A stretch of 64,000 bases of DNA. Origin: an uncultured Pseudobdellovibrionaceae bacterium (lineage in GTDB: Bacteria > Bdellovibrionota > FAC87 > UBA2466). The position numbers and the translations under genes are program-made. Below, piece by piece: positions 21,623 to 38,522 of the stretch. A model generated the notes under the pieces. That model had not been told where the DNA came from. It saw only the letters and a list, made by a program, of their open reading frames with translations, and made no database searches. Numbering within the stretch: the stretch's first letter is position 1; every line of letters begins with the position of its first letter. Location of the stretch: assembly GCA_964396165.1 (NCBI GenBank), contig CAYNEF010000001.1, positions 65,990 to 129,989 of the forward strand. Direction: 5' to 3'.

Positions 21623-22174
21623 CAAATAATTTTTTACATGGCCCCTAAGCAGCCAGCCCAAGCGAAAGGAAAAGAAGCCTCCTAATAAAGCTCCTAAGGA
21701 CCAAGCTGCAATGAGGCTAGCAGGGATCGTATGTTCCACTTCCCCAACGGATAGAAAAAAACCCAATGACAAAAAAACCAAAAGAGCCCATTGAAGCAGC
21801 GGTGTTTTTCTAATTGCTCGAACTTCGTGCGTTCTCAAAAGAAAAGCTGCGACCAAACCCGTCCCTCCCAAAAAGACAGCTCCACAAGCGAGCATGCACC
21901 CATAAGATCCAAAGCTTGAAAAAAAGCTTAAAAGAAAATCATTTTCTTTGTGGATTGTGACTCCCAATTGTGGGCAGAAGAAAAGCGTGATCACGCCCGC
22001 TATAAAATGAATCGCGAATAACTTGCAGAAAACCTTCCAGATGGGTGGGTTGAGCTCGTCATGCAGTGTCCGTTTAATAAAAGCTGTAACGTCGGAGGGT
22101 GGTGTACTCCGGTCGGATTCCAAAAAGTACTGGTACTCTTTGTTCCAGTCGTCTTTTGAAAAATCTTTTTTCAT
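21614..22174 (-). CDS. Membrane anti-sigma factor (NrsF/DUF1109-like, multi-TM)
   Basis: Overlaps the ECF sigma stop by 4 bp. Cytoplasmic N-terminus followed by ~5 TM helices. Confidence 0.5.
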   Translation of the reverse strand: MKKDFSKDDWNKEYQYFLESDRSTPPSDVTAFIKRTLHDELNPPIWKVFCKLFAIHFIAGVITLFFCPQLGVTIHKENDFLLSFFSSFGSYGCMLACGAVFLGGTGLVAAFLLRTHEVRAIRKTPLLQWALLVFLSLGFFLSVGEVEHTIPASLIAAWSLGALLGGFFSFRLGWLLRGHVKNYLLS

Positions 22175-22794
22175 TTTTTTGCCCTCAATTTCTGTCCGTG
22201 CATTTTCACCTTCTTCAGAGCACGGCTAACCATTTGGCGCGCGTTTACAGGAGTCGTTTCAAGCCGTAACGCAATTTCCTCAAAAGAAAAATCGTTCCCG
22301 TACCTAAGCAGAAGCGCTTGTTTCTGTTCCTCGGAGAGTATTTTTAACCTTGCGGTATCTTCCAATAATACTGGCTCTAAATTGTGTTGTTCAGCCTGCA
22401 CGCTGGTGACAGTAGTTTTAGAAATCTCGATAGTTTTTTTACTTTCCCTCCCTTTGGATCGCAGTGCATCTATCATCACACTTCGACAGATCGTAAAAAG
22501 CCAAGGGAGCAACGGTAGCGGAGTACGATATTGCATGCGGGTCAGGTGAAACTTAAAAAAAGTGCCCTGAAAAATATCGTCCGCGAGCGCACTATCTGAA
22601 ATGCGCTTTCTCAAATAGCCTCGAACTAAATCCGCATTTCGATCGTAAAGCAGGTTGAATGCCATGGAATCCCCTTCCTGGTAGGCAATCATCAACTCCT
22701 CATCGGTTTTGGAACTGTAATCAATTTCACTCATACTTATTACGATCTGAGTCCACTTTTTTGTGACAAACCATTTAGCTACCACGGGAAGCAC
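22171..22794 (-). CDS. ECF-type RNA polymerase sigma-70 factor
   Basis: Region 2 (LLYDRNADLVRGYL...) and region 4 HTH (LLLRYGNDFSFEEIALRLETTPVNARQMVSRALKKV). Start may be the internal MSEIDYS. Confidence 0.8.
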   Translation of the reverse strand: MLPVVAKWFVTKKWTQIVISMSEIDYSSKTDEELMIAYQEGDSMAFNLLYDRNADLVRGYLRKRISDSALADDIFQGTFFKFHLTRMQYRTPLPLLPWLFTICRSVMIDALRSKGRESKKTIEISKTTVTSVQAEQHNLEPVLLEDTARLKILSEEQKQALLLRYGNDFSFEEIALRLETTPVNARQMVSRALKKVKMHGQKLRAKK

Positions 22795-22931
22795 TAAAAA
22801 ATCAAATACTTAGCAAATAATCCACTTTAAGTTAGAAATTCGTCACAAAAGCACACTGCGCTTCGTAACTATCTTCAAGAAGGGAAATCTTCGACAGCCA
22901 TTAACTATGGTTTAGAAGAAACGCTCAAAAA

Positions 22932-23294
22932 ATGCATAAAGGTCTGTTAAAATTTGTGGGAATTCTAGTAGGAAGTTCTCTTTTATTTGCTTATTTGTTT
23001 AGCTTTAAACAGTCTAAAACCGTAAGCAGTGAAAACCTTAAGTCTTCAAATGCTCAAACTTGTCAAATCTCGGAAATGACACCTACGTCTTGCTCAGGGG
23101 ATAAGGACGACCACGCTGGTTCTGCTGAAGATACTTCACACTGTCAAAAGCACTGCGGCCATGTTCATGCCGGACTTCTCTCAGATGCAAATCTGAATCT
23201 CACTTCACCAGACTCTAAAAAATCCATCGATTCCCCCGAAAAAACACCCGAAAACGTAATTCTCGATCCTGGCTCTCGTCCTCCCAATCTTTAA
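22932..23294 (+). CDS. Small membrane-anchored Cys/His-rich protein, possible metal binding
   Basis: N-terminal TM, then TCQISEMTPTSCSGDKDDHAGSAEDTSHCQKHCGHVHAG. Confidence 0.35.
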   Translation: MHKGLLKFVGILVGSSLLFAYLFSFKQSKTVSSENLKSSNAQTCQISEMTPTSCSGDKDDHAGSAEDTSHCQKHCGHVHAGLLSDANLNLTSPDSKKSIDSPEKTPENVILDPGSRPPNL

Positions 23295-23372
23295 AAATTA
23301 GTTTCCTGAAATTTATTAAAAACCAAGTCCATGAGTTTACGGTCATAAATACCTTACTCATAAAAATCAAAA

Positions 23373-23837
23373 TTGGAGATTAAACAAATGAAAACTTTAA
23401 ATCTATTAAGCGTTGGAATAATTATTACTTCTCTTTCAGCAAGCGTCAGCTATGCTCGCACAAGCTCAATCCGAGGTCGATTCGATCATAGCATGCGAAA
23501 ACCAGTACTCACTGACGTAAAGTGGACCGGAACATTCCGTTGTGAGGAGAAAAAACACGCAGTCGATCATGAGAAAAACCATGAATGCGATCTGGAATTT
23601 GTAAATGACGATACAAATGAAGTCTGGAACGTTAAAACCACAAAGGCTCTTGAGTCAATGCACCAACAATATGATGGGCCAATAAAAGCACAAATTGAAG
23701 CAGTGCGTTCCCCCCGTTATTTATTAGGAGGAAGTTATGTGGATATCAAAAATATCAAGCTCATGGACGGTGCGGTAAAAGACGATAAGCTTCCTGAAAG
23801 TAAAGATAACGAGAAAATGAGAAATGGCCGTATTTAA
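23373..23837 (+). CDS. Secreted hypothetical protein
   Basis: Signal peptide. No motif recognised. Confidence 0.45.
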   Translation: MEIKQMKTLNLLSVGIIITSLSASVSYARTSSIRGRFDHSMRKPVLTDVKWTGTFRCEEKKHAVDHEKNHECDLEFVNDDTNEVWNVKTTKALESMHQQYDGPIKAQIEAVRSPRYLLGGSYVDIKNIKLMDGAVKDDKLPESKDNEKMRNGRI

Positions 23838-23975
23838 TAATCAAACCGTTAAAAAATAGGCGTCCGAAAGGACGCTCTAAGGCCACTATTTCTGTCTACG
23901 GAACAGCGGAAATAGTGGCTTCTTTAATGCCATTCCGGCGGTGTTACAACGCTTGTAAAAAGGCAGGGAGAAAAA

Positions 23976-25235
23976 GTGCGTTTAAGCTTATCCAAAATAG
24001 CCAAAATAGTAACCATCCTGTTCTTGGTTTTGCCTCCAGTACGGGCCGAGGAGGAAGTTAAACCTGAAAAATGGACTTTAACCAAATTGCTTGAAAAGGC
24101 TTCGGCCAATTCTGCAACTGTTAAAGCTGCCGAAAAAGATTCTATTTCAGCTGAAAACCAAGCTTACCAAGCAGGCAAATGGGATAATCCGGAGGTCTCA
24201 GCAAACTTTGGCGAAAAATCCGATAGTAGCACTAAAGGAAACGTCTTTCAGGTTTCCCTGCTTCAAACCGTTCCTGTTTTCGGACAAAAAAGCATCTTGG
24301 AAAAAATAGGGAACCAGCAATTCCTCATTTCCCAAACTGAAAAACAAATCCAAAGCCTAATCCTTCAGCATGAGGTCGTAAAACGAGCTTACCGTCTCGC
24401 CGCGGTAGACGAACAAATGAAACATGTTTCCCATCGCAAGGATAAAATTCACCTAGTTGAACAATATTTAAAAAGCCGCCCCTTTGCCTCCCCCTCTCAA
24501 TTAGTGGAAAAAAGCCTGATAGAAAATCGCTTGCGAGAAATAGAAGAGAAATTTGTTCAAATTTCAGCGACAAGGGAAAAAGAATGGCAATCCTTGAACA
24601 TACTGCTCAACTTTTCTTCACCAATTTATCCCGAGCTAAATTGGTTTACCTCTCCTACTCTTCCTAACCGCGAAAGCCTACTTGAAAAAATACAAAAGGA
24701 TAATTTGGAGATCACTAAACAATCAAAGGTGGTTGCGACTTCAGAATTACAGATCGAGCAGGCAGGTAAAAAGGTTTATCCAGAGGTTCGAGTAGGGGGA
24801 GGATACAATCAAGAAATTTTGGGTACTACTGAAAAGTCTTACTATGGAATGCTTCAGCTCAGTATCCCTCTTCTAGACAGGGGGGGCTATGGGCTTGAAG
24901 CAGCAAAAGCCAAACGCGAAGCAGAGACTTACCGATTGGAGCAACAGCGACGCGAGACGGTTAGCAAGTTTGGAGAAGCGTGGGCTGAGCTGACTGAAGG
25001 GACAAGGCGACTAGAATTATTTCCACTGTCACTAGTCCCAAAACTTGAGAATCAAATGAAAGTCACCGAAGCAAATTGGCGAAAGGGATTAGTGCAAGTA
25101 GCGTCATTTCTCGAACTAGAAAACCAAGTACATGAACAAGCTGTAAAAGTATTTGATGCGCAAATGGCTTATGTCGAAGCTCTAAGTCACGTGCTTCTCT
25201 CGTCGGGACAGTCTTTTCCTGTGGAGGGAAAATAA
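23976..25235 (+). CDS. Outer membrane efflux protein (TolC/CzcC family)
   Basis: Signal peptide, OMF-like coiled-coil repeats. Stop is 1 bp before the RND ATG. Confidence 0.8.
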   Translation: MRLSLSKIAKIVTILFLVLPPVRAEEEVKPEKWTLTKLLEKASANSATVKAAEKDSISAENQAYQAGKWDNPEVSANFGEKSDSSTKGNVFQVSLLQTVPVFGQKSILEKIGNQQFLISQTEKQIQSLILQHEVVKRAYRLAAVDEQMKHVSHRKDKIHLVEQYLKSRPFASPSQLVEKSLIENRLREIEEKFVQISATREKEWQSLNILLNFSSPIYPELNWFTSPTLPNRESLLEKIQKDNLEITKQSKVVATSELQIEQAGKKVYPEVRVGGGYNQEILGTTEKSYYGMLQLSIPLLDRGGYGLEAAKAKREAETYRLEQQRRETVSKFGEAWAELTEGTRRLELFPLSLVPKLENQMKVTEANWRKGLVQVASFLELENQVHEQAVKVFDAQMAYVEALSHVLLSSGQSFPVEGK

Positions 25236-25236
25236 A

Positions 25237-28200
25237 ATGCTCAATACTCTTGTGGAATCAGGCCTTCGTAATCGTCTTTGGGTATTTTCCCTTTTTGGCG
25301 CGCTTGCACTCTTAGGAATCGGTGCAGTTATTAGCCTTCCTCTGGATGCTGTTCCAGATATAACGAATGTTCAAGTTGTTGTTAATACGAAAACAAATGC
25401 TTTAGATCCAGGAAAGATAGAAAAGCTCGTTACCTACCCCATCGAAACTGAGCTTTCGGGGATGCCGGGCGTTGAGCAAGTCCGATCTCTTTCCAAATAT
25501 GGGCTCTCCCAAGTAGTCGTTATTTTCGAGGAAGGCACCAATATCTATTTTGCGAGACAACTTGTTTCCGAGCGACTTCAAGGAGCGCGCGAAAATATTC
25601 CAAGCGGGCTCTCCCCCGAAATGGCTCCTGTTACAACCGGCCTTGGCGAAGTACTGATGTATGTGGTGACAGCAAAGCCAGGCTCTGATTTAGCGAAAAA
25701 AACCGAGAAAGAACAACTTTTATACTTGAGAGAGATGCAAGACTTTGTCATTCGCCCACAACTTAAAAAAATTACCGGTGTGGCTGACGTTGACACTAAC
25801 GGAGGATTCCTTAAAGAAGTGCATATCAACTTCGTTCCAGAACGCCTCGCCCACTTTGGGCTATCTTTGGATAAATTCATCACAAAGATCGATTCCCTAG
25901 GAGAAAGTTTCGGCGGAGGCTACATACAAAAAGAAGGGAATCAAGTAATAGTTCGGGCAACGGGCAAGGTGGCCGATCTTGAAACCATTTCCAACTTGCC
26001 ATTAAGTTTAAATGTAAGTGGAAAACCAATTCGGATAAAAGACGTTGCAGATGTAAGCGTTAATAGCGCTCTTCGACTGGGAGCTGCAACTTTTGGGGGT
26101 AAAGAAACGGTACTGGGCACAGTTCTCATGTTAATTGGTGGAAATAGTCGAGAAGTTTCCTCGCAAGCAGAAGACTTTTTAAAAAGAGAAATTCAGCTAC
26201 CGCAAGATGCTGACGTGAACATTGTTTATTCTCGAAGCCACCTTGTGGGCGCCACTATTCATACTATCCTTAAGAATCTCTTTGAAGGGGCGCTGCTAGT
26301 TGTCGTAGTCCTGTTACTTTTATTGGGCAATTTTAGAGCTGCCTTAACCGTTGCGCTTGCTATCCCAATCTCGATGCTTTTTGCGCTTAAAGGCATGGCA
26401 ATTTCCAAAATTTCAGCGAACTTGATGAGCCTTGGGGCAATTGATTTTGGGCTGCTTGTGGATGGTTCTGTCGTTCTCATTGAAAATATCGTTCGAAGAT
26501 TTGAAGAACTTCATGGAAAAGTTATCGATAAAAAAGAAAAACTGGAAATTGTATTAGAAGCAAGCCAAGAGGTTTTAAAACCCATCGTATTTGGACTTTT
26601 AATCATCATGCTAGTCTACGTACCCATCCTTTATTTAGAGGGTGTCGAAGGAAAAATGTTTAGACCAATGGCGGCAACGGTGCTTTTAGCTTTGGGCGCA
26701 AGTCTTATTGTTGCCTTGTTTCTTATGCCTGCATTGGCTTATTTCCTTATCCCCAGCAAAATTAAGGAAACAGAACCCTGGCTCTTTCGTATCATTAAAA
26801 ATCTTTATCAACCGTTGTTGAAGGTTAGTTTAAAGCAACGATGGATAGTCGGCGTTATTACGTTAATTCCAGCCACTCTCGCAATCTTTCTATTTTTTCA
26901 ACTGGGGTCTGATTTCGTGCCTCAGTTGGACGAAGGAGATTTAGTCATTAACCTTGCAAGGGAATCCCGGCAGGGAATAGACGAGTCGGTAATTCGCCAA
27001 AAACAGGCTGAGGAAATTATCGGGAGTTTTAAAGAGGTTGAATCCGTTTTTTCCCGAATGGGCACCCCTGAATCAGCCCTTGATCCTATGGGACCCTATT
27101 TAGCGGATACTTTTGTAATCTTGAAAAAGAATAAAAATGAATGGCCCCAAATATCAGGTAGAACGAGGACAAAAGAAGAACTGTTTGAGGCTATCAAAGT
27201 TGAGCTTGAAAAAAATAACCCGACCCAAGAAGTTTCACCTAATCAGCCCATTGCGATGCGATTTAATGAGATACTTGAGGGATCTCGAGCGGATATTTCC
27301 CTTAGAATTTATGGACCCGATCTGGACAAGCTTGTTGAATATTCAGAAAAGGCGCAAAAGATTTTGTCTGATATGAAAGGAATATCCTCCCTTGAATCAG
27401 ATCCTTTAACAGCCCTGACCAAAGGTCCAGTACTCGATGTGGTCTTGGACTACGAAAAAATGGCGCGCTTCGGACTTTCGCTTCGCGATGTGAATGGCGT
27501 TCTAGAGAGTGCGATGAGCGGACGTGAAGTCGGATCTTTTTACGAGGGAGATAGGAGGTTTGCTATCGTTCTACATCTTAAAGAAAGCTTAAGAAATGAC
27601 ATTTCTCAAATTGCCGCTGTTCCGGTAAGTCTTCCTGATGGGGGAACTATTCCTTTGTCATCCGTCGCTACCATTAGCGAACATGACCAGGTTACAACAG
27701 TCGCAAGAAGCGGTGCCAGAAGATATTCCGCGTTGTCTATTTTTCTTAAGGACAGGGATATTGCGAGTTTCGTTGTGGAAGCAAAAGAGCGAATTAAAAG
27801 CCAGTTGAATTTGGACTCAAATTATACGGTCGAATGGGGAGGACAATTCAAAAACTTGGAAAGAGCCCGCAAAACTCTCTTTATTATTATTCCAATTACA
27901 CTTCTTGTGATCTTTATTCTCCTACTAAAAAGTTTTGGTAACATTCGCCACTCACTGCTGGTTTTTAGCGCGATTCCATTCGCTGTAGTTGGGGGAGTAT
28001 TCGCACTTTATTTTAGAGGAATTAATTTTAGCGTCTCTGCAGCGGTAGGTTTCATTGCTTTAGCGGGTATCGCTACACTGAATAGTATGGTGATGGTAAG
28101 TTTCTTTAATCAACTTCGTGCTAAGGGAGAAGGGATAGAGGATACAATCTTTAAAGGCGCCCTTCTAAGGCTTCGTCCCGTTGCGATGACAGCGCTTGTA

Positions 28201-28392
28201 GCTAGCTTAGGGTTTCTTCCCATGGCATTAAATACCGGCATGGGCGCCGAAGTGCAACGCCCCCTTGCCACCGTTGTCATTGGCGGACTTTTCACCTCAA
28301 CAATTTTGACTCTTATTGTTGTACCTATATTATACGGCTGGATTGAGAAAAAGTTTGGCACGGAGAGTTCCACTCCAGTAGACCGCGTTTAA
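25237..28392 (+). CDS. Heavy-metal efflux RND transporter (CzcA/CusA family)
   Basis: 1051 aa. N-terminus ...DAVPDITNVQVVVNT...VTYPIE matches the HME-RND signature region. Confidence 0.9.
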   Translation: MLNTLVESGLRNRLWVFSLFGALALLGIGAVISLPLDAVPDITNVQVVVNTKTNALDPGKIEKLVTYPIETELSGMPGVEQVRSLSKYGLSQVVVIFEEGTNIYFARQLVSERLQGARENIPSGLSPEMAPVTTGLGEVLMYVVTAKPGSDLAKKTEKEQLLYLREMQDFVIRPQLKKITGVADVDTNGGFLKEVHINFVPERLAHFGLSLDKFITKIDSLGESFGGGYIQKEGNQVIVRATGKVADLETISNLPLSLNVSGKPIRIKDVADVSVNSALRLGAATFGGKETVLGTVLMLIGGNSREVSSQAEDFLKREIQLPQDADVNIVYSRSHLVGATIHTILKNLFEGALLVVVVLLLLLGNFRAALTVALAIPISMLFALKGMAISKISANLMSLGAIDFGLLVDGSVVLIENIVRRFEELHGKVIDKKEKLEIVLEASQEVLKPIVFGLLIIMLVYVPILYLEGVEGKMFRPMAATVLLALGASLIVALFLMPALAYFLIPSKIKETEPWLFRIIKNLYQPLLKVSLKQRWIVGVITLIPATLAIFLFFQLGSDFVPQLDEGDLVINLARESRQGIDESVIRQKQAEEIIGSFKEVESVFSRMGTPESALDPMGPYLADTFVILKKNKNEWPQISGRTRTKEELFEAIKVELEKNNPTQEVSPNQPIAMRFNEILEGSRADISLRIYGPDLDKLVEYSEKAQKILSDMKGISSLESDPLTALTKGPVLDVVLDYEKMARFGLSLRDVNGVLESAMSGREVGSFYEGDRRFAIVLHLKESLRNDISQIAAVPVSLPDGGTIPLSSVATISEHDQVTTVARSGARRYSALSIFLKDRDIASFVVEAKERIKSQLNLDSNYTVEWGGQFKNLERARKTLFIIIPITLLVIFILLLKSFGNIRHSLLVFSAIPFAVVGGVFALYFRGINFSVSAAVGFIALAGIATLNSMVMVSFFNQLRAKGEGIEDTIFKGALLRLRPVAMTALVASLGFLPMALNTGMGAEVQRPLATVVIGGLFTSTILTLIVVPILYGWIEKKFGTESSTPVDRV

Positions 28393-28587: not shown

Positions 28588-28803
28588 TTAGGGACGCTTC
28601 CGTCTCTTTAACCATACTAATACTTCCGAAGTTTGGTACCGTACCGCTCTCCCTATTTTAAAATAGGGAAGTCCGTCATCTACCATGAGTTTATTGATAT
28701 AGCTTACAGAGATAGCTAATCTTTCTGAAAGTTGATCCTTTGTAACCAAAAACTCTGACTCGCTGAATATGGGGCTAGGTTTTTGCACTTCAGTTGAACG
28801 CAT
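28588..28803 (-). CDS. AlpA/Xis-family excisionase-like DNA-binding protein
   Basis: LSERLAISVSYINKLMVDDGLPYFKIGRAVRYQTSEVLVWLKRR resembles the AlpA prophage regulatory HTH. Confidence 0.55.
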   Translation of the reverse strand: MRSTEVQKPSPIFSESEFLVTKDQLSERLAISVSYINKLMVDDGLPYFKIGRAVRYQTSEVLVWLKRRKRP

Positions 28804-29079
28804 TTTATTTCTTCAAAAAAAGATTTTTCACTCATATAGGAATTTATTGGCAACAGAAATCGAAAGTTTACAATTCCTCCCGCAACAACGCAACGAATCA
28901 TACCACCTTTTTATCACTAACTCCTAGCTAAGCGAGCCAAAAGAGAATCCGGAGGACTGAAGTCCTATTAGTTATGGAAGTGCCCGACTTACCTATACAA
29001 ATGAAAAGCACGGAAAGCTGGGTGGCAATTATTGGACTGATTTAAAGACAACTGGCCCGCTAACACTATTTAAGAAATC

Positions 29080-29499
29080 TTAGTCGGAGCTATGCTCCTG
29101 TGCGAAAGCTTCGATTCTGGATTTAAGTTCATCTCGAACTTTTCGAAAACGACTTAACTCTTCTTCTTCAGAGCCCCCTTTGCCAGCAGGATCAGGCAAA
29201 GGCCAATGCACTTTAGTTGCCCTAGAAACCATCTGTGGGCACACTTCTTCCGCGCATAAAGTAATCACATAATTTAAACTAGCAATGAATCCCGGATGCA
29301 AGTCATCGTATGACTTAGAGTGATGACTGGTAATGTCGATACCAATCTCATTCAGCGTCTTTATGGCACTGGGATTTACTTTCGACGGTGCAGATCCCGC
29401 GCTCTCCACTTTCACGCTTTTATCGAATATCTTTTTAGCAAGGCCTTCTGCCATTTGGCTCCTTGCTGAATTTGCGACACACATAAATAGAATATTCAT
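29080..29499 (-). CDS. arsC: Arsenate reductase, LMW-PTP (thioredoxin-coupled) family
   Basis: CX5R P-loop CVANSARS plus downstream Cys pair (LCAEEVCPQ). Confidence 0.85.
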
Positions 29500-30569
29500 A
29501 ATAGTTTCTCCTCAAAGCGTCTTTTTCTCAACCAAAAGGCAGCCTGGACAAGCGAGATCAGTACCGGCACCTCAACCAAAGGTCCTATAACAGTCGCGAA
29601 TGATGCCCCATGCGCTATTCCGAAAGTCGCAATCGCTACCGCAATCGCTAGTTCAAAGTTATTCGAAGCGGCTGTAAAAGATAGACTGGTTGCTTCTCGA
29701 TAATTCGCGCCAGCCTTTTGACTTAATATGAATGATAAAAAGAACATTACTACGAAATAGATGGCGAGTGGAATCGCTATACGTAAGGTGTCTACTGGTA
29801 AGGCGAGGACCGTATCCCCTTTTAAAGAAAACATAACCTCAATTGTGAATAAGAGTGCCGCTAAAGTTATCGGACTGATCCGAGGAATAAACTCCTTGTC
29901 GTACCAATCAATTCCTTTTGTAGGTCGCAAGATAAGTCTTGTAATAAAACCAGCCGAGAAAGGGATGCCTAGGTAAATACCTACTGATTTTGCGATATCC
30001 CAAATCGTTACATGCAATTGTAGACTTTGGAGTCCTAACCAACTTGGAAATAGAGTTAAAAAGAGATAGGCATAGAAAGGAAAGAATAGGATTTGAAAAA
30101 TAGAATTAAGAGCGACGAGCCCGGCGCAGTACTCGGCACTTCCTTCCGCAAGTTCATTCCATACGATAACCATGGCTATGCAACGGGCAATTCCCATTAG
30201 CATTAACCCTGCCATATACTCAGGTTTGTCTTTTAAAAAAATAATGGCCAGAAAAAACATGAGCAAGGGTCCGATAAGCCAATTTTGAATTAGGGAGAGA
30301 GCTAGGATTTTTTTATTACGGAAAACCTCTCCTAATTTTTCGTACTGCACCTTCGCCAAAGGGGGATACATCATAAGGATCAATCCTACGGCGATAGGAA
30401 TTGAAGTCGTTCCCAAACTAAATTGAGTAAGGGCTTTCCCCAGTTGTGGCGCAAATACACTTATGACTAACCCCAGGCCCATGGCCAAAAAAATCCAAAG
30501 GGTTAAGTATCTATCTAAAAAAGAAAGTTTCTTGGTTTTCATGGCAGGTATCATTGGCATTAGCAACAC
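29496..30569 (-). CDS. acr3: Arsenite efflux permease, ACR3 family
   Basis: 357 aa, 10 TM, ACR3-like conserved segments. 4-bp overlap with arsC. Confidence 0.85.
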
Positions 30570-31000
30570 TTAGCGGCTGTTGAACAAGCGTTTGCTTTTG
30601 GAACCAACCTTGGCGGTTCTGTTCCGACCGCGGGTAACTGTTCGTGTACAAAAAAGACTTCCCATGAGTTCCCATCCGGATCTTGAAACCAAAATTTGTC
30701 TTGCTTCGCAAAGCAGCAATCCGTTGCTTCCTCTATCAACGTTGGGATGTTTTTCGCAGAAAGATTTTTTTGCCACTCCTTCACTTCATCAACGCTCTCG
30801 ACCTCAATACCAAGATGGTTCACATGACTTGCTTTTCTGCCATCTACCGCTTCATGCATGGCAAAGTTCAGAGCTAGCGTCTTTAAATCAAATTTTGCAT
30901 AGGTTGCAGATTGTTTTTGAGGTTCTACTCCAAATACAGTTCGATAGAAATCTACTGATTTTTTTAAGTTCAATACATTAATAGATAGATGTGGTCTCAT
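30560..31000 (-). CDS. VOC/glyoxalase-fold protein with vicinal Cys pair (ArsI-like C-As lyase / CadI-like)
   Basis: Start taken at MRPHLSIN with RBS aaggag 6 nt upstream. TDCCFA vicinal cysteines, C-terminal CSTAAKCC. Confidence 0.55.
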
Positions 31001-31010
31001 TCGGTCTCCT

Positions 31011-31409
31011 TTAACAACCTTTTTCAAAGCAATCGAAAATTCGGCACTCTCGCATGGATTGCTCTCCCTCACCGCAAACTTTTGAAAGTCGGAAAAGAGA
31101 AGCTTTCATCTGCTTCAGATCCTCAATCTTTTTACGAATCTCCTGGATCTTCTCATTGGCCTTTTCTTGTACCTGGGCACCAGTAATTTTTCGCTTGGAT
31201 TGTATATCCAAGAGTTCTTTTACTTCCCGTAAGGTAAACCCAAGTTCCTGAGCACGCTTAACAAAGCGAACACGGGAGGCCTCATCGTTTGTATAGAGCC
31301 TAAAACCGCCATCACGGCGTTGGGGCTTTTTGATTAGCCCCTTCCGCTCATAAAAACGAATGGTTTCAACTCCTACACCGGCGAGCTTAGCTAATTTTCC
31401 AATCGTCAT
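31011..31409 (-). CDS. MerR-family metal(loid)-responsive transcriptional regulator
   Basis: HTH MTIGKLAKLAGVGVETIRFYERKGLI, coiled-coil, C-terminal Cys cluster (CGEGEQSMRECRIFDCFEKGC). Start at the internal Met. Confidence 0.75.
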   Translation of the reverse strand: MTIGKLAKLAGVGVETIRFYERKGLIKKPQRRDGGFRLYTNDEASRVRFVKRAQELGFTLREVKELLDIQSKRKITGAQVQEKANEKIQEIRKKIEDLKQMKASLFRLSKVCGEGEQSMRECRIFDCFEKGC

Positions 31410-31430
31410 ATCCACACCTAACACCCTACA

Positions 31431-31450
31431 CTCCGTACCATAGTACGGAG
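31431..31450. promoter_or_regulatory. Perfect 20-bp dyad CTCCGTACCATAGTACGGAG inside a MerR-type promoter (TTGACT, 19-20 bp spacer, TAGGGT)
   Basis: Seen directly in the sequence, 22 bp upstream of the merR-like start. Confidence 0.45.
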
Positions 31451-31665
31451 TCAATGGTAATCTTGATTTGAGCCAATTATTCAGTTTGAAGCAGGAATTG
31501 GACATTGATTCCTACAGAACGTACATTTTACTAGACAAAGACTTTTCCACCACTAGGCACATATTTTCAAATGGAAAGATTGTTTACGCTTCAAACGTGG
31601 GACGATTGCACCGTAGGGTTAGAAGATCAGCTTAATATTATTAGCTTTTGATTTCTAGTATATAT

Positions 31666-32460
31666 CTATTCAAAATGTGAGTGATCAAGTTCATACTTGT
31701 TTGTTATGTTGAAATTAAGACGGCCTGTATTTTCTTCGAAAATAATTAAATTATTTTTAGTTTGGGTTCTTGCGCTTGCATACAAAATGCCTTTATATCC
31801 TTTTTTTCGAGCTACTACACCTAAGATTTGACTAGCACTGGGAATTTCAAATTGTTGGTTAAGATCGAACCACTCATTCATCACAACACTTCTAGGTATT
31901 TTCAGAGCTTTGAATGTCGGATCAGCAGTTAAAACTAATATATTATCCAGATCGACTTCAAATTCAAAAAACCAGTACTTAGGCATTTTAAATTCACTTT
32001 CTATTTCTTCCTTTTTTCTTCCGATTAATTGCGCATAATTATTCTTTTGTATATCTAAATGGAACAGCTCTGCATAACAACATTCTTTACTCTGACTCAA
32101 ATACAAAACTCGATTACGCATTTCTGCAACGTTTTTGTAGTTAAACCGTGAATTTGAAAACAATGATCCTTCACCAGACAAGGGCTCGCTGCTGTATGCT
32201 TCTTTAACAATTCGGAAAAAATTTGTTTTCTTGTCTTTATAAGAGCATTTGGCAGCGGAGGAAAAATCTAGCTCTGATAAGCTATCTAATTCTGCCTTTA
32301 ATCTAAGCTCTTGCCTTTGGAGAAATTTTTTCTTCGATCCCTCTGTTGCGAACTCATCTTCAACATCTGCAACAGTGTTTCGTAAGTACCACTTACAAAA
32401 AGCATCTACCTCTGAGGGATTAGTAAAACACACCCCATCAAGGACACTAAAATCGTACAC
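31666..32460 (-). CDS. RES-domain toxin (ParT/MbcT-like)
   Basis: SNSRFNYKN...VLYLSQSKECCYAELF...GILYASARTQ carries the RES Arg/Glu/Ser signature layout. Immediately downstream of the Xre/ParS antitoxin. Confidence 0.6.
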   Translation of the reverse strand: MYDFSVLDGVCFTNPSEVDAFCKWYLRNTVADVEDEFATEGSKKKFLQRQELRLKAELDSLSELDFSSAAKCSYKDKKTNFFRIVKEAYSSEPLSGEGSLFSNSRFNYKNVAEMRNRVLYLSQSKECCYAELFHLDIQKNNYAQLIGRKKEEIESEFKMPKYWFFEFEVDLDNILVLTADPTFKALKIPRSVVMNEWFDLNQQFEIPSASQILGVVARKKGYKGILYASARTQTKNNLIIFEENTGRLNFNITNKYELDHSHFE

Positions 32461-32462
32461 TA

Positions 32463-32885
32463 TTAACCCAGACGTTGTTCGAGGATATTTCTGACTTGGC
32501 GAGTTTTTCCTTTAAGCATAAATTCTAGCGCACTTTTATCATCAAATTCCGGTCTAGGCATTTTAAGCCAACGCTGCATCTTCACTTTAATGGCAGTGGG
32601 CGCAAGCTCGGATTCTGACTCTCCGATAATTTTAATGATCAAATTAAATATTAATAACCACTGCTTCAGGGTTTGGTTCTGTGACGCGTAAGGATTTTTG
32701 CTTATTTTAGACTCATCTAAATGAAAACTTTCAGCAATCTGCTTTTGCTTTATATCCAATAATTCCGCAAGTCGCTTAAGGTTCACTTCGGTAGGATTTT
32801 CTTGTGTGTATAAGTCTTCTAATACATCTAAATCTTTAAAAGAGTTAGATGTTGAATCCTTAGTGTCTTTCTTGCTCATTTGCAC
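32463..32885 (-). CDS. Xre-HTH / ParS-MbcA type antitoxin (DUF2384-like C-terminus)
   Basis: HTH LKRLAELLDIKQKQIAESFHLDESKISK, then a C-terminal helical domain ending ...ALEFMLKGKTRQVRNILEQRLG. Confidence 0.6.
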   Translation of the reverse strand: MQMSKKDTKDSTSNSFKDLDVLEDLYTQENPTEVNLKRLAELLDIKQKQIAESFHLDESKISKNPYASQNQTLKQWLLIFNLIIKIIGESESELAPTAIKVKMQRWLKMPRPEFDDKSALEFMLKGKTRQVRNILEQRLG

Positions 32886-33385
32886 TCCAAATTCATTAGT
32901 GAATACCTATAACCTACTAGCATCCACATTTCAATATAGGTGCAATTATTGTGCAATTGCATGGCAATACTTTTATAATTTAATTATATCACTAACTAAT
33001 TGATTTTAATGATAATATCATAACACACTGCTCATATAGCACTATATACCATACAAAAACAGTGTCAAATTTCATCATTTTGCCTGTATTTTATACACTA
33101 ATGAGATTGTCTTTTTTAGTGCATTAAAAGAGTAACTTTTAGGAAGAACCTTTTAAGGGCAGTCACTACTTCCGTATCCTTTAATTCTGCTTATGATGAC
33201 AAGTTTACCCTGTTTAATATGGGTGAGCCCGAGGGGAAAAAGATCGTAGATTTTTTCAAGTTTAATAATGTCGAAGTGTCGGTGGCAGCCAAGCTTTATT
33301 CAAACTGCCCTAGATGAAAATAAACGATAGCTTCTATTTTTTTACGAGTTACTGACCCCGACGAGTATTGGAAAACTACCCAAAA

Positions 33386-33532: not shown

Positions 33533-33604
<72 letters not shown>

Positions 33605-33676: not shown

Positions 33677-35047
33677 CTAAGGTCTAAAAATACCACCAGT
33701 GTTGATTGTTCCACTGGAATCTTGTCCTCCAAACACTACCATCTTGGTGCCCGTCCATATTGCGGTATGAGCGTTGCGGATAGAGGGAGCAGTCGTAGTA
33801 GTAATTGTCGTCCAGGAGTTAGTAGTAGGATTAAATAGTCCGCCGGTGTTGTTATACACAGTGCTTCCGTCATCCCCTGCAAATACGAGAAGCTGAGTAC
33901 CTGTCCAAATACCTGTATGATAATAACGAATGCTTGGGGCGCCGGTAGTTGTAGTGAGAGTCCAAGAGTTGGCGCTTAAGTCATATACGCCACCTGTATT
34001 GATTCCACTTGTACCGTCCCACCCTCCAAACACCACCATTTTTGTCCCAGTCCAAACAGCACTATGTATCCGACGAATGTCCGGAGCACCTGTAGTGGTA
34101 GACAGCGTCCAGGTATCTGTCGCAGGATCATATGCGCCACCCGTATTTAAGAAAAGGCCCGCGCCTCGATCGCCTCCAAATAGTAAAGCTTTTTCGCCTG
34201 TCCAATTAGCAGTGTGATTTGCACGTATGCCAGGAGCACCTAACGTAGTCGTAGCTGTCCATGTATCGGTTGCGGGATTATATAGTCCACCCGTGTTTAC
34301 CCTCCCACCACCACCTCCTCCTCCGTGCACAAACATTTTACTTCCAGTCCATGTAGCCGTATGTAACCGGCGAATGCTAGGTGCGGCAGTTGTCGAGAGT
34401 GCACTCCAAGTATCAAGTTGCGGATCATAACTGCCACCCGTATTGAGATAAGCCCCATTGTATCCACCAAAGACAAGCATCTTAGAATCTGTCCAAACTG
34501 CAGAATGGTATGCACGAATATCGGGAGCACCGGTTGTAGTAATCTCTGTCCAAGAGTCAGTAGATGGATCGTATGCCCCTCCAGTATTGAGATAACTACT
34601 TGCAACTCCCTGTCCTCCGAACACTAATACTTTTGAGCCTGTCCAGACTGCCGTATGCACATAGCGAATAGCTGGAGCGCCCGTGGTCGTACTGGAAATC
34701 CACTTGGCAAAATAAGTAAATAAACCAGTGCCGGTTCCGCTTTGAGTATCCGGATTAGTAACGGTGATGTCAGCACTTCCTGCCGTGCCGCCTGGAGTTG
34801 TACACGTAATGGTGTAGTAATTGACGATCGTGGGTGAAGTACAGGGACTGCCTGCTACAGTTACTGTTGCATTGAGAGAAAAACCGAGGCCGGTTATTGT
34901 AATAACTGTTCCGCCAAAAGTGGAATCAGTCTCTGGGGTCACGCTAGTTACGGTAGGCGCTGGTGCAATAGTGCTTGATGAACTAGTTACTCCATTGCCA
35001 CAACCAGATATTAGTAAGAGATTTAAAAAAAAATAAACTATCTTCAT
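33677..35047 (-). CDS. Lipoprotein with IPT/TIG domain and about seven Kelch-like beta-propeller repeats
   Basis: Lipobox LISGCG. IPT-like TVTSVTPETDSTFGGTVITITGLGF. Repeats GAP.IR..HTA.WTG.KM.VFGG...NTGG.Y.P.TD.W. Confidence 0.7.
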   Translation of the reverse strand: MKIVYFFLNLLLISGCGNGVTSSSSTIAPAPTVTSVTPETDSTFGGTVITITGLGFSLNATVTVAGSPCTSPTIVNYYTITCTTPGGTAGSADITVTNPDTQSGTGTGLFTYFAKWISSTTTGAPAIRYVHTAVWTGSKVLVFGGQGVASSYLNTGGAYDPSTDSWTEITTTGAPDIRAYHSAVWTDSKMLVFGGYNGAYLNTGGSYDPQLDTWSALSTTAAPSIRRLHTATWTGSKMFVHGGGGGGGRVNTGGLYNPATDTWTATTTLGAPGIRANHTANWTGEKALLFGGDRGAGLFLNTGGAYDPATDTWTLSTTTGAPDIRRIHSAVWTGTKMVVFGGWDGTSGINTGGVYDLSANSWTLTTTTGAPSIRYYHTGIWTGTQLLVFAGDDGSTVYNNTGGLFNPTTNSWTTITTTTAPSIRNAHTAIWTGTKMVVFGGQDSSGTINTGGIFRP

Positions 35048-35325
35048 CATTTCGGTTAGACGCATATTTTTTAAGTCCTGCTTATTTAAAAACTAATGTA
35101 TCTATATCGTCTCCTCGGAGAATCTTATTTATAGTTGGATAATGCGAATATAAACACAATTCTGGTACGAACGGTAGAGCTGCTGTGGGCACCTCAACGG
35201 GGAGGGCAATTACCAAGTTGAGGTGTGAGGTGGTGGGCCGATGTCGATTTTCCTACTCCCGAGCTGCCATGATTTAGACAAGAAGTAATCTTACTAAGGA
35301 CAAAGTCAAAAGATCTAAATCCTGT

Positions 35326-35606: not shown

Positions 35607-38522
35607 GTGATGCGTAAATTCTTTTTTAATCCCTTAATACTGGTAACACTATTTTTTCTCACTCTAACATCCTTGCAAGTGGCGCAAGCCTGTCAAGACT
35701 GTACGAATGGAGGCTCGGGATCATCTTGTGAGACCTGCGAATACGTCTATAATTCGAATACGGGAAGTTATGACTATATTTGCCAGAGCAATTATAGTTC
35801 CGTTTACTACTACAATTATCTAACTCTAGATGGATACGCGCTGGATGAAAGAACTTCTCTGCCAATTACTCTCGATTACACAAGAGTAAAATTGTATGAT
35901 CGCTACGGACGTCTTCTTGCTACAAGGACAGCTGATTTAGACGGCTATTACGATTTTAATGATTATTACATAACCGATAGTTACAATGTGACTTATTACA
36001 CCGTATGCGCAAGTGCTGGGATCAACTATCCAGAAAAATGCTACGAACGGAGTTTTTATGACTCAGCAAATTCGTATTGTAGTATCTACAACTATCAGAA
36101 TTTTTACCTAAAGGCTCAGCCACCTAAACCGACAAACATTGTTTTCTCTGGAGTAACTCAAACGGGCGCCTCTGTGAGTTGGCAAAACGGCGGTGGCATT
36201 ACAACAGGATTTAAAATAAATTTTGCGGCTGGGAGAGATTACCCCTCTTGTAGCGGGATGGACGTTGGTTTAAGTACTAGTCGCAGCTTTTCTGGGTTAA
36301 AAGACTCCACCCAATATTTATATACAGTATGCGCGTATGACCAATATGGAACGTACTCCTATCCGCTCAATGGGCAACTGATTACGTCAAAAGATCCGTT
36401 AAAGATTTCCATTTCAGCTGGCAGAAATGGGTATGTCGGTATTGACGGAAAAGTTTGGGACTCGGACTCAGGCCTTTACGCTGGATCTACTGGTACTTTC
36501 TCTACAGGTAATTCAATTCAAAACGTGACAGATTCAGAACTTTACCAGTACACGCGCTATGGTCAAAATTTTCAGTATTCGATACCGATGACTAGCGGTA
36601 ACTACTTCGCATTTTTGAAGTTTGCAGAAGTGTATTTCAGCTCGGCAAATGAACGCATTTTCAATGTTTCATTGAATGGGAATACAGTTTTATCAAGTCT
36701 GGATCTTTTTGCGGCAGCGGGAGGCCGCGATAAAGCTGTGGATTACGTCTTTCCTGTGGCTGTAGGAAATGGCATCTTAAAAATGGATCTAGTGGCCTCC
36801 AAAAACAATGCTTCGATTAATGCGATACAGGTACTAGCAGCAGGAAGTGGTAAATCGATTGTCGGCACACCGGCGTTTCCCGCGACTGCCTACGTTTGGA
36901 ACCAATATACAGCAGCAGTTGCAGCACCGACTTATACATTTGGTGCAAGCACTCTTTCGTCACTCCGCTCTTGGATTGGGTACGCGGGAGTTTCGTCAAA
37001 ACAAAATTTTGCTTGGAGCGGTCTCACAGCAGGAAGAACTTATTTCGTCAGTTACTACCCAGCATTTGCTACAGACTCGGTTCCCTACACCGCAAATATT
37101 GTTTCTGGTTCAGCTACAATCCACACGGGCCAAACGTTTGTTCCCAAGCCTCCCATCGCGAATGGAAATTATTATCAAGTGCCGACTCCATGGATGATAG
37201 TGTTCACTGCGAACTCTTCTAACGTGACTTTGCAATTGGGCAATGATCAAACAAGTGGTGCCCATTACATGTATTTGGATTACGTCGAGGGTTCAAATCC
37301 CAATATACCGGCGTTTATTGCGGCTCCTCCGACTCCCACTAACTTTGTTGCTAGCGCAACTACTACGTCTAGTCTTTCCTTTACTTGGAACAGTGCTGGG
37401 GGAACGACACAAGGATTTAAGTTTAGTTCTGCTGCCGGAAATGTTTCTACACTTGGTTGTGAGTCAGGAACGGACTTGGGATCTGCTACAAGTTATACTT
37501 TAGGAAGTTTACAACCAAGTACTACCTACACAGTGGCGCTGTGTTCGTATAACTCTGTTACTACCCTTTCTCAACCAGTTCGGCTTGTACTAAATACAGC
37601 TAATTTGCCATTGCCTAACTCGGGAAGTGTTCTCGTAAATGCAGGGGGAAGTTCCTATACTGCGGCTAACGGAGCAAGGTGGTCCGCAGATTCTGGTTTT
37701 TCCTCTAGTTCCACATACCAAGTATCAAATTCGATATCAAATACGGTTGATCAAAATTTATATCAAACCAGCCGATATGGCTCGAGCTTCACCTATACTG
37801 CAAACGTCACTGATGGTCTTTATGAAATTACTTTAAAGTTTGCAGAGCCCTATGTATCTGGTGTGGGCCAACGTGTGTTTAATACATCGGTAAATGGTAT
37901 CCAGTGGCTTACCAATTTTGATATTTTTAAGGAAAGTGGAGGAAAGTTTGCAGCAGTAGATCGCAGTGGGTACTTTAATGTGACAGGTGGAAAAGTAACG
38001 ATTCAGCTTTCTGCCATAGCAAATAATGCGATGATTAGTGCAGTCCAAATTTCTCCTGTTCCTACACAAAAGCTTGTCATTGGAACACCTGCCTTCCCTT
38101 CAACAGTGGGAGTATGGAACCAGTTTCTCTCTGCTAGCGCTAATGAAAACTATATCGTAGGAACTAGTAATCTCTCCAAAATACGTTCTTGGATAGGCTA
38201 TGCTGGTGCGTCCACTACGCAAAGTTTCACTTGGAACAACTTAAGTGTCGGTAAGAGTTATTATCTGAATTACTACCCTGCATTTGCGACAAACTCTATC
38301 CCATACTTTGCAGAGGTAACTGCAGGAACAGCAACATTAACCAGTGGCGCTACATTTACGCCCCCGTTGTCTTTGTCGACTGGCAATTACTATAATGGTC
38401 AACTTGCTTGGCCAATTCGCTTTGTGGCAGGTTCTCCCTCAATTACGATTCGCATGCGTAACGGACAAACCAGTGGTGCTCAATATATGTATTTAAATTG
38501 GGTAGAGACTGTGAAACCTTGA
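35607..38522 (+). CDS. Large secreted protein: Cys/Tyr-rich N-terminus, CarbopepD-reg-like domain, then tandem duplicated [FN3 - malectin-like carbohydrate-binding - beta domain] module
   Basis: Signal peptide. TRTADLDGYYDF. Two ~400-aa internal copies with FAEVYFSSANERIFNVSLNGN...FAAAGG vs FAEPYVSGVGQRVFNTSVNGI...FKESGG, and GTPAFP...RSWIGYAG...YYPAFAT in both. Confidence 0.7.
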   Translation: MMRKFFFNPLILVTLFFLTLTSLQVAQACQDCTNGGSGSSCETCEYVYNSNTGSYDYICQSNYSSVYYYNYLTLDGYALDERTSLPITLDYTRVKLYDRYGRLLATRTADLDGYYDFNDYYITDSYNVTYYTVCASAGINYPEKCYERSFYDSANSYCSIYNYQNFYLKAQPPKPTNIVFSGVTQTGASVSWQNGGGITTGFKINFAAGRDYPSCSGMDVGLSTSRSFSGLKDSTQYLYTVCAYDQYGTYSYPLNGQLITSKDPLKISISAGRNGYVGIDGKVWDSDSGLYAGSTGTFSTGNSIQNVTDSELYQYTRYGQNFQYSIPMTSGNYFAFLKFAEVYFSSANERIFNVSLNGNTVLSSLDLFAAAGGRDKAVDYVFPVAVGNGILKMDLVASKNNASINAIQVLAAGSGKSIVGTPAFPATAYVWNQYTAAVAAPTYTFGASTLSSLRSWIGYAGVSSKQNFAWSGLTAGRTYFVSYYPAFATDSVPYTANIVSGSATIHTGQTFVPKPPIANGNYYQVPTPWMIVFTANSSNVTLQLGNDQTSGAHYMYLDYVEGSNPNIPAFIAAPPTPTNFVASATTTSSLSFTWNSAGGTTQGFKFSSAAGNVSTLGCESGTDLGSATSYTLGSLQPSTTYTVALCSYNSVTTLSQPVRLVLNTANLPLPNSGSVLVNAGGSSYTAANGARWSADSGFSSSSTYQVSNSISNTVDQNLYQTSRYGSSFTYTANVTDGLYEITLKFAEPYVSGVGQRVFNTSVNGIQWLTNFDIFKESGGKFAAVDRSGYFNVTGGKVTIQLSAIANNAMISAVQISPVPTQKLVIGTPAFPSTVGVWNQFLSASANENYIVGTSNLSKIRSWIGYAGASTTQSFTWNNLSVGKSYYLNYYPAFATNSIPYFAEVTAGTATLTSGATFTPPLSLSTGNYYNGQLAWPIRFVAGSPSITIRMRNGQTSGAQYMYLNWVETVKP

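Follow-up and report, generated by a model that had tools for sequence, protein, structure and literature searches.

A MerR-type regulator heading an arsenic-resistance operon of an uncultured Pseudobdellovibrionaceae bacterium: a probable arsenic-sensing relative of mercury-responsive MerR

Background

Direct sensing of arsenic by bacteria is, in the textbook account, a matter of derepression by ArsR/SmtB regulators, with leaky basal expression, and the As(III) S3 sites of ArsR proteins arose at different places in different members (R773, AfArsR, and CgArsR). MerR-type switches are valued for their tight off-states. In the mercury-resistance (mer) operons of RC607 and pI258, merR stands first in the operon that it controls, and canonical Hg(II) sensing requires a cysteine numbered Cys79 in the Bacillus protein and Cys82 in that of Tn501. 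This report concerns a stretch of 64,000 nucleotides from an uncultured Pseudobdellovibrionaceae bacterium (positions 65,990 to 129,989 of contig CAYNEF010000001.1), referred to below as the window, and within it a gene cluster that, judged by its gene content, is an arsenic-resistance (ars) operon, merR(ars)-arsI-acr3-arsC, under a MerR-type regulator. The regulator is probably an undescribed arsenic-sensing switch, to go by its sequence and its neighbours, and we consider it fairly likely that it is a trivalent-arsenic-responsive activator derived from the Hg(II)-sensing MerR proteins (Hg-MerR), the effector being read from the gene neighbourhood.

The arrangement resembles that of operons under ArsR/SmtB repressors (R773 ArsR, AfArsR, CgArsR) in that the regulator stands first in an ars operon, would be autoregulated, and is expected to sense trivalent arsenic through cysteine thiolates. 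It differs in fold, which is unrelated, and in mode of action, in that the winged-helix repressor leaves the DNA there whereas a bound, DNA-distorting activator is predicted here. A 2021 review of the MerR family and a 2024 review of metallostasis give ArsR as the arsenic sensor family and do not list an arsenic-sensing MerR (PMC11672702, PMC9909328); the three ArsR proteins are pictured in the former record (PMC11672702). No MerR-controlled ars operon or arsenic-sensing MerR was found in the full-text literature, a search that lay outside subscription journals, and an earlier description is possible.

The regulator and its cysteines

The first gene of the operon encodes a protein of the MerR type, as the original prediction stated, with matches to PF13411, PF09278, and PF00376 and with the winged helix-turn-helix (HTH), long dimerisation helix, and cysteine-bearing loop of that family. 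The best match by sequence in the PDB was the Bacillus MerR 4ua1 (E 1e-25), followed by Tn501 MerR, CueR, PbrR, and CadR. Among NCBIfam models the best was the Hg-MerR model TIGR02051, with a score of 130.1 bits that lies under the equivalog cutoff of 150.85, and the subfamily model NF010315 was matched at 97.8 against a cutoff of 261. In the alignment the HTH region is near-identical to that of Tn501 MerR.

A C-terminal cysteine cluster had also been predicted, and it consists of C112, C122, C127, and C132. The first two correspond in the alignment to the Bacillus MerR loop ligands C114 and C123 and are in register with C117 and C126 of the Tn501/Tn21 protein, while Gly77 occupies the position of the third Hg ligand (Cys79 in Bacillus numbering, Cys82 in Tn501). 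Only the loop cysteines of the three-ligand Hg site are thus kept. Gly77 and all four cysteines were invariant in an alignment of 43 sequences, which share 64-85% identity with the window protein and have a column identity of 68% on average, and Thr-Gly at positions 76-77 together with the pattern C-x9-C-x4-C-x4-C was present in roughly 100 of the 120 top-ranking database clusters, clustered at 90% identity. Several relatives carry the automatic label 'Hg(II)-responsive' in JGI annotations, and this label is probably wrong.

A monomer model was generated with AlphaFold2 from the 43-sequence alignment and had a mean predicted local distance difference test score (pLDDT) of 82. It comprises the HTH, the wing, a helix from 77 to 113 that ends at C112, the loop, and a short helix. 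A Foldseek search with this model returned CadR, PbrR, CueR, and MerR at the top, with E values of about 1e-8.

Three described regulators are the closest terms of comparison. The Hg-MerR of Tn501/Tn21 (5crl) shares the fold, a near-identical recognition helix, the -35 hexamer TTGACT, the operator half-sites, and an over-long spacer; the window protein differs by Gly in place of Cys82 and by two extra invariant cysteines (C127 and C132), its gene is co-directional with and first in the operon rather than divergent, and the genes controlled are ars and not mer genes. The Bacillus megaterium MB1 or RC607-type MerR, although the best PDB match, keeps Cys79 and lacks the tail DCFEKGC found here, where arsI-acr3-arsC lies downstream. 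CueR (1q05) is 32% identical, with a template modelling score of about 0.7, and like the window protein has two loop cysteines and begins its dimerisation helix without a cysteine (Ser77 takes that place in CueR). It differs in having 7 rather than 9 residues between the loop cysteines, in lacking the two further invariant cysteines, in its operator, and in its targets (copA/cueO, as against arsenic genes here).

Four closely spaced cysteines might also form a thiol-redox switch, which would answer arsenic-caused thiol depletion or oxidative stress by disulfide formation or S-thiolation and would not bind arsenic. The MerR family does include SoxR and NmlR, both of which were weak matches of the regulator; however, the protein is nearest to metal-binding members, its C112 and C122 are in register with C114 and C123, and the linkage described below is to arsenic genes only and not to general thiol-stress genes. 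We regard such a switch as very unlikely.

The start of merR is probably ATG 31409. The product on record (P0001, 164 aa, start ATG 31505) was rejected, since most homologues are 132-137 aa long and begin with MTIGK and since the extension would carry translation across the conserved promoter and operator; the upstream start was probably mis-called.

Promoter and operator

Upstream of merR the original prediction had placed a perfect 20-bp dyad with a CATA centre, CTCCGTAC-CATA-GTACGGAG, and this was recovered on the plus strand at 31431-31450 without mismatch. The dyad extends further, to perfect arms of 9 nt, and on the minus strand (31451-31430) it reads ACTCCGTAC-TATG-GTACGGAGT. It was the sole match within the window, even with three mismatches allowed, and dinucleotide shuffles gave an expectation of 0.08 matches on average. 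The automated promoter scan covers spacers of 16-18 bp only and is blind to this promoter, which was therefore read by hand. A spacer of 19-20 bp had been foreseen as the MerR hallmark and was found to be 20 bp; target promoters of the MerR family have a 19-20 bp spacer that separates the -35 hexamer from the -10 hexamer, with a dyad operator (PMC9909328).

The promoter was compared with the Tn501-type merT promoter of plasmid record CP075759.1, which reads TTGACT-CCGTACATGAGTACGGAAG-TAAGGT and contains the operator TCCGTAC-ATGA-GTACGGA. The -35 hexamer and the 14 half-site positions are identical and are set around the same 4-nt centre. The layouts differ solely in that the dyad and the -10 hexamer are set one base pair further apart here, which gives a spacer of 20 rather than 19 bp. 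By this match the dyad is the canonical mer operator and not a new operator, and the regulator would therefore be a re-specialised relative of Hg-MerR.

For comparison, 168 related loci were gathered from species-representative genomes, metagenomes, and exact look-ups. A promoter with a 20-bp spacer that holds the operator (TTGACT-type -35, then TAnnnT) was present in 40 of 41 ars-linked loci. The -35 hexamer is TTGAC[TC] in 36 of these 41 and TTGATT, TTGATA, or TTGTGT in the remainder, and in 38 the operator departs from the 14 core positions by two mismatches or fewer. The gap from the end of the -10 hexamer to the ATG measures 12-16 nt in 29 loci (range 9-40 over the 41). The transcript leader there should accordingly be no longer than about 5-8 nt, which leaves no room for a normal Shine-Dalgarno sequence. 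Because the same promoter-operator architecture recurs in 40 of 41 ars-linked orthologous loci, the dyad lies beyond chance. Binding at the dyad is well grounded, since operator and -35 hexamer match those of Tn501 and the HTH is near-identical to that of Tn501 MerR.

Operon structure and related loci

Four tightly packed genes on the minus strand form one unit, encoding in order the MerR-like regulator, an ArsI-like enzyme, an ACR3-family permease, and a putative arsenate reductase, ArsC, of the low-molecular-weight protein tyrosine phosphatase (LMW-PTP) type (Table 1). The arsI-like gene starts 10 nt past the merR stop codon, the ACR3 gene starts at ATG 30560, where TAATG overlaps the arsI stop codon, or at ATG 30542, and the arsC start overlaps the ACR3 stop codon as ATGA. 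The span originally proposed, 30560-31455, holds the promoter, merR, and arsI, but the operon runs on with the genes for ACR3 and ArsC to 29080. The As(III) efflux permease to be expected of an ars operon is ACR3. ArsC has a CX5R loop (C7 to R13) and a distal cysteine pair in TLCAEEVCP, and it scored 125 bits against TIGR02691, below the cutoff of 174.

In all, 37 non-redundant loci are ars-linked, and they belong to Bdellovibrionota, Nitrospirota, and unclassified metagenome-assembled genomes (MAGs). The nearest labelled relatives are MAGs of Bdellovibrionota. All six close relatives that were looked up (66-85% identity) head an ars cassette, each in unrelated flanks, with the gene orders MerR-Glyoxalase-SBF-LMWPc (L081, L164, L165, L168), MerR-Glyoxalase-MIP-LMWPc (L083), and MerR-SBF-LMWPc-GNAT (the P0105 subgroup, L167). 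Relatives at 47-57% identity likewise stand directly 5' of ArsI-like, ArsC, ACR3, or MIP genes; their hosts are Bacteriovoracaceae, Bdellovibrionaceae, Pseudobdellovibrionaceae, Halobacteriovorax, Nitrospirota, and Manganitrophaceae. The arrangement recurs in dozens of predatory and nitrite-oxidising bacteria.

Downstream genes were counted in those 27 non-redundant loci for which 2.5 kb or more of sequence was available past merR. ArsC was present in 23, an ArsI-like vicinal oxygen chelate (VOC) protein in 19, and ACR3 in 14, with a MIP channel in several others; several 'ArsI-ArsC' loci add a MIP channel. Eight of the 27 have no VOC gene at all, and these belong to sister groups of ars-linked MerR that head ArsC-ACR3.

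Such conservation argues against reading the locus as a one-off mosaic or decaying mer remnant without regulatory meaning. An AlpA-type HTH gene, a RES/Xre toxin-antitoxin pair, and a tRNA-like gene do flank the cassette, and the 164-aa GenBank-style product overlaps the promoter. Against this, about 100 distinct clusters at 90% identity carry the same signature, the promoter is kept in 40 of 41 ars-linked loci, the four cysteines are invariant, the genes are tightly spaced, and a GC anomaly is absent. By these comparative data a mosaic is effectively refuted, and we consider it extremely improbable.

The MerR is the sole regulator within the cassette. No ArsR homologue was detected in the window by tblastn with two hand-entered ArsR probes (E 1e-3), nor beside the related ars-linked cassettes with the same probes, which is a moderately strong negative. 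Hand-entered probes likewise gave no MerT or MerP match in the window. The ars-linked operons themselves hold no merT, merP, or merA, a result on the mer side that is independently supported by Pfam scans, and the only probe matches at an ars-linked locus were two HMA-type MerP proteins in L004, more than 4.9 kb upstream and on the opposite strand.

Contrast relatives with the classic motif (about 40-50% identity; Cys79 together with C-x-G-x-GP-x-S-E-C-P-I-L) use the same operator. Their downstream open reading frames (ORFs) encode HMA, Thioredoxin_3, MerC, MerT, MerA-type oxidoreductase, MerB, and P1B-ATPase proteins, and MerT/MerP probe matches occurred at 33 of 126 loci. No ars genes were found downstream of the classic-motif relatives among these loci.

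These comparisons bear on whether the regulator has remained a sensor of Hg(II) or of some other soft metal (Cd, Zn, Pb, or Cu/Ag/Au), the ars genes being wired into a heavy-metal response. Its best family and structure matches are to Hg-MerR (TIGR02051 at 130 bits and 4ua1), its operator is the mer operator, the window has a metal-resistance neighbourhood (P-type ATPase, ECF sigma factor, OEP, and RND pump), and CueR, also without a cysteine at position 77, works with two. In Pseudomonas pseudoalcaligenes CECT 5344, moreover, the MerR-family protein MerR2 is reported to influence ars genes, arsR being one of its targets (PMC10832572). MerR2, however, is an Hg-responsive master regulator that acts via an arsR elsewhere in the genome, whereas here the regulator is encoded by the dedicated first gene of the ars operon, no ArsR was detected, and the metal site is altered. 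A soft-metal sensor is further at odds with the score under the MerR equivalog cutoff, with the change of the Hg ligand Cys79/82 to Gly, with the absence from the window and the ars-linked operons of merT, merP, and merA, which Hg-motif relatives carry, and with the specific and repeated linkage to ACR3, MIP, ArsC, and ArsI across about 40 loci. It is in our estimate quite unlikely.

Sensing of arsenic by the regulator is the reading strengthened by this linkage, because it recurs in about 40 loci of several lineages with differing flanks and modules, and because ArsR is not adjacent, the Hg ligand has become Gly, and four other cysteines are invariant.

The ArsI-like enzyme and the inducer

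The ArsI-like gene with a vicinal cysteine pair, expected from the original prediction directly after merR, is there. Its product covers positions 1-145 of 147 of NF041414, above the cutoff, and aligns to the T. curvata ArsI structures 5c4p and 5d4f (E 1e-18). The residues H4, H62, and E114 and the pair C95-C96 match TcArsI positions in 5c4p; we take them to be the Fe(II) triad (H/Q-H-E) and the substrate-binding cysteine pair known from studies of ArsI. The protein is by sequence a member of the ArsI/CadI group, and C-As lyase activity is predicted. All VOC proteins linked to these regulators keep the CC pair and the metal triad, the pair lying within the motif TCC[YF]A.QDK.W that is shared with T. 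curvata ArsI and the ArsI of Bacillus sp. MD1. Two VOC subfamilies occur under these MerR proteins, namely the ArsI-like type of the window and a KRFHVHVG type in Bacteriovoracaceae. The enzyme of the window differs from described ArsI in a cysteine-rich tail that ends in CC and in its control by MerR and not ArsR, and NCBIfam merges ArsI with CadI.

With regard to this tail, all ArsI-like proteins under these regulators have a low-complexity, cysteine-rich C-terminus that closes with CC or CCx and in many cases contains a further CC; in the window it ends in KCC (tail region 30560-30640). The crystallised T. curvata ArsI chains stop short of the corresponding region. The tail might serve to hand arsenic to the pump.

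In keeping with ArsI, the regulator might be selective for organoarsenicals such as methyl-As(III) (MAs(III)) or aromatic As(III), in parallel to the MAs(III)-selective ArsR, and two thiolates would then suffice. The ArsI-like gene directly follows merR in nearly every operon of the window's group, the CC pair and metal triad are retained by every linked VOC protein, and one subgroup has in place of ArsI a GNAT gene of the ArsN kind, whose product detoxifies arsinothricin. On the other side, 8 of the 27 loci, in the ArsC-ACR3 sister groups, are without a VOC gene, the partners that stay constant are ArsC (23 of 27) and an exporter of As(III), ArsC and ArsI alike yield As(III), and four invariant cysteines exceed what two-thiolate binding needs. 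Selectivity for organoarsenicals is on this evidence unlikely, and the original emphasis on them was weakened by the sister ars-linked regulators that head ArsC-ACR3 without VOC. Inorganic As(III) is more likely to be the common signal: ACR3 and MIP transport it, both ArsC and ArsI produce it, and VOC-less operons exist under sister regulators.

Phylogeny and variation of the sensor motif

A neighbour-joining (NJ) tree was calculated from Kimura distances for 154 non-redundant sequences and 132 columns, rooted with CueR, with 200 bootstrap replicates. All 34 ars-linked sequences fell within one clade of 41 leaves (60% bootstrap), and the window's own group had 93% bootstrap. The seven other leaves of the clade are L020, which is ars-linked, L087, which has no downstream sequence, and five that are not ars-linked (L028 and four Nitrospira sequences beside ZIP, CobW, or transposase genes). 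Strict monophyly of the hand-defined ars-linked sets was not recovered. A single origin of ars linkage within the Hg-MerR radiation is plausible and moderately supported by this tree.

The cysteine pattern differs between groups. The window's group has G77 and four cysteines, the Nitrospirota group C79 and four cysteines, and the large Bacteriovoracaceae group C79, C112, C127, and a terminal CxC without C122. C112 occurs in every ars-linked group, and the [DE]CF cysteine (C127) in all of them, with only L038, L057, and L077 of the Hg-like group lacking it.

Several observations weigh against an arsenic sensor derived from Hg-MerR. Support for the deep monophyly is only 60% in the NJ tree. The cysteine pattern varies across ars-linked groups, and most sister groups keep Cys79; L008, L022, L038, L057, and L077 are Hg-like, with the loop CC...ECPIL. 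Conversely, L033, L045, L048, and L051, from Nitrospira/Nitrospirales and Planctomycetota, have a similar tail (...ECRLLDCFENNWECC) and are without Cys79, yet do not stand beside ars genes: no ars genes were found at these four loci, the neighbours being ZIP, CobW GTPase, GDSL lipase, or transposase genes. The tail motif by itself is therefore no predictor of arsenic, and these four regulators may sense another ligand, such as zinc. The C-terminal 20 residues of the structural model, a monomer, have low confidence (pLDDT 54-65), the negatives for ArsR, MerT, and MerP are weakened by the use of hand-entered probes, and the effector is assigned from gene neighbourhood only.

Proposed mechanism

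In the arsenic-responsive activator that we propose, a dimer of the 132-aa protein would bind the 9-4-9 dyad within its own promoter's over-long 20-bp spacer. As long as no effector is present, the -35 and -10 hexamers would be out of phase and the operon would be kept low. A trivalent arsenical, most likely As(III), with Sb(III) and methyl- or aryl-As(III) plausible too, would bind a C-terminal thiolate cluster made up of C112 (where the dimerisation helix ends), C122, C127, and C132, three or four of which may ligate arsenic, and the dimer would then under-twist and kink the operator. The hexamers would be realigned, and a single short-leader transcript of all four genes would be made. As merR is first in the transcript, induction would be positively autoregulated. 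ArsC would reduce arsenate, ArsI would cleave the C-As bond of trivalent organoarsenicals to give As(III), and ACR3 would export As(III).

Dimer binding, a promoter held low, and activation by under-twisting of the operator are well grounded by homology with MerR, CueR, and ZntR. For this locus in particular, we infer the effector, activation through DNA distortion, and the choice of cysteines that ligate arsenic.

Genomic neighbourhood

The features of the operon are listed in Table 1. The hairpin at its end is a weak terminator-like element, followed on the minus strand by a moderately T-rich stretch. An Rfam scan of the whole window found nothing within the operon.

Table 1. Features of the ars operon and its promoter (positions in the window)
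Feature	Position	Strand	Evidence or remark
merR-like regulator, 132 aa	31011..31409	-	PF13411 6.1e-19, PF09278 7.4e-17, PF00376 6.6e-16
arsI-like VOC metalloenzyme, 146 aa	30560..31000	-	NF041414, 138.3 bits against cutoff 116
ACR3-family arsenite efflux permease	29496..30560	-	TIGR00832, 433.6 bits against cutoff 282.8
putative LMW-PTP-type arsenate reductase (ArsC), 139 aa	29080..29499	-	PF01451 8e-19
-35 hexamer TTGACT	31449..31454	-	overlaps left dyad arm by 3 nt
Spacer, 20 nt	31429..31448	-	holds most of the dyad
-10 hexamer TAGGGT	31423..31428	-	ends 13 nt before ATG 31409
Operator, perfect 9-4-9 inverted repeat ACTCCGTAC-N4-GTACGGAGT	31430..31451		core TCCGTAC-N4-GTACGGA
Short GC hairpin AGGACT-nn-AGTCCT	28953..28966	palindromic stem	114 nt past arsC stop

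Directly upstream of the ars promoter lies a RES-Xre toxin-antitoxin pair (31666-32885, minus strand), in which an Xre/MbcA/ParS-type antitoxin of 140 aa (PF09722, 5.7e-5) precedes a RES toxin of 264 aa (PF08808, 7.6e-12). After arsC there is an AlpA-like HTH_17 gene of 71 aa (28588-28803, minus strand), and a gene of the same family follows arsC in L081 (8901-9134), a possible sign that a small excisionase-like gene moves together with the cassette. A tRNA at 33533-33601 on the plus strand was found full-length by Rfam (39.8 bits), with a CAU anticodon loop and a shortened D-arm; it is absent from the ARAGORN output and is perhaps an unusual or decayed tRNA-Met. The Xre gene is 650 nt away from it, and the ars cassette is on the 5' side of the tRNA. 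A 14-nt direct repeat (28909-28922 and 32984-32997, 13 of 14 identical) brackets arsC to Xre, and about two such pairs are expected by chance in 5.4 kb of AT-rich sequence; the repeat is probably meaningless. A genomic island was considered and not supported: a GC anomaly is absent, the cassette is 5' and not, as usual, 3' of the tRNA, the repeat is within chance, and no integrase was seen.

Past the end of the cassette, the metal-resistance neighbourhood at 19394-28392 holds genes for a P-type ATPase (19394-21622) and an extracytoplasmic function (ECF) sigma factor (22171-22794, minus strand), the latter with an unassigned partner ORF of 186 aa (21614-22174). An outer-membrane factor (23976-25235) and an RND pump (25237-28392) follow, with no recognisable membrane-fusion protein between them, and ahead of the outer-membrane factor there are two small unassigned ORFs (22932-23294 and 23373-23837). 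On the other side, a 462-aa lipoprotein-like ORF (33677-35065, minus strand) has repeats of about 50 residues, 'TTTGAPxIRxxHTAVWTGxKMxVFGG', with a Kelch/RCC1-like look, and a 971-aa secreted protein (35607-38522, plus strand) contains two long internal duplications.

Conclusions

Taken as a whole, the comparison inclines us to read the protein as the first metalloid sensor of the MerR family. The mer operator and the distortion mechanism would have been kept, Cys79 lost, and C127 and C132 gained in the DCFEKGC tail, giving an As(III)-binding site (possibly also for Sb(III) or organo-As(III)) through which ars operons would be controlled positively in Bdellovibrionota, Nitrospirota, and allies. 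If true, the effector range of the MerR family would be extended to a metalloid, with the metal site re-sited from Hg to As on a fixed DNA-binding and allosteric chassis and the operator unchanged. This would be a fourth independent As(III) thiolate site, on a scaffold other than ArsR. Database labels would be corrected, and an activator-type part for arsenic biosensors would become available. A sister-type carrier, Bacteriovorax sp. BSW11_IV (L038), is in culture, so the idea is directly testable. For the organisms themselves, the finding would mean that predatory Bdellovibrionota, and Nitrospirota too, regulate arsenic detoxification in another way than model organisms do.

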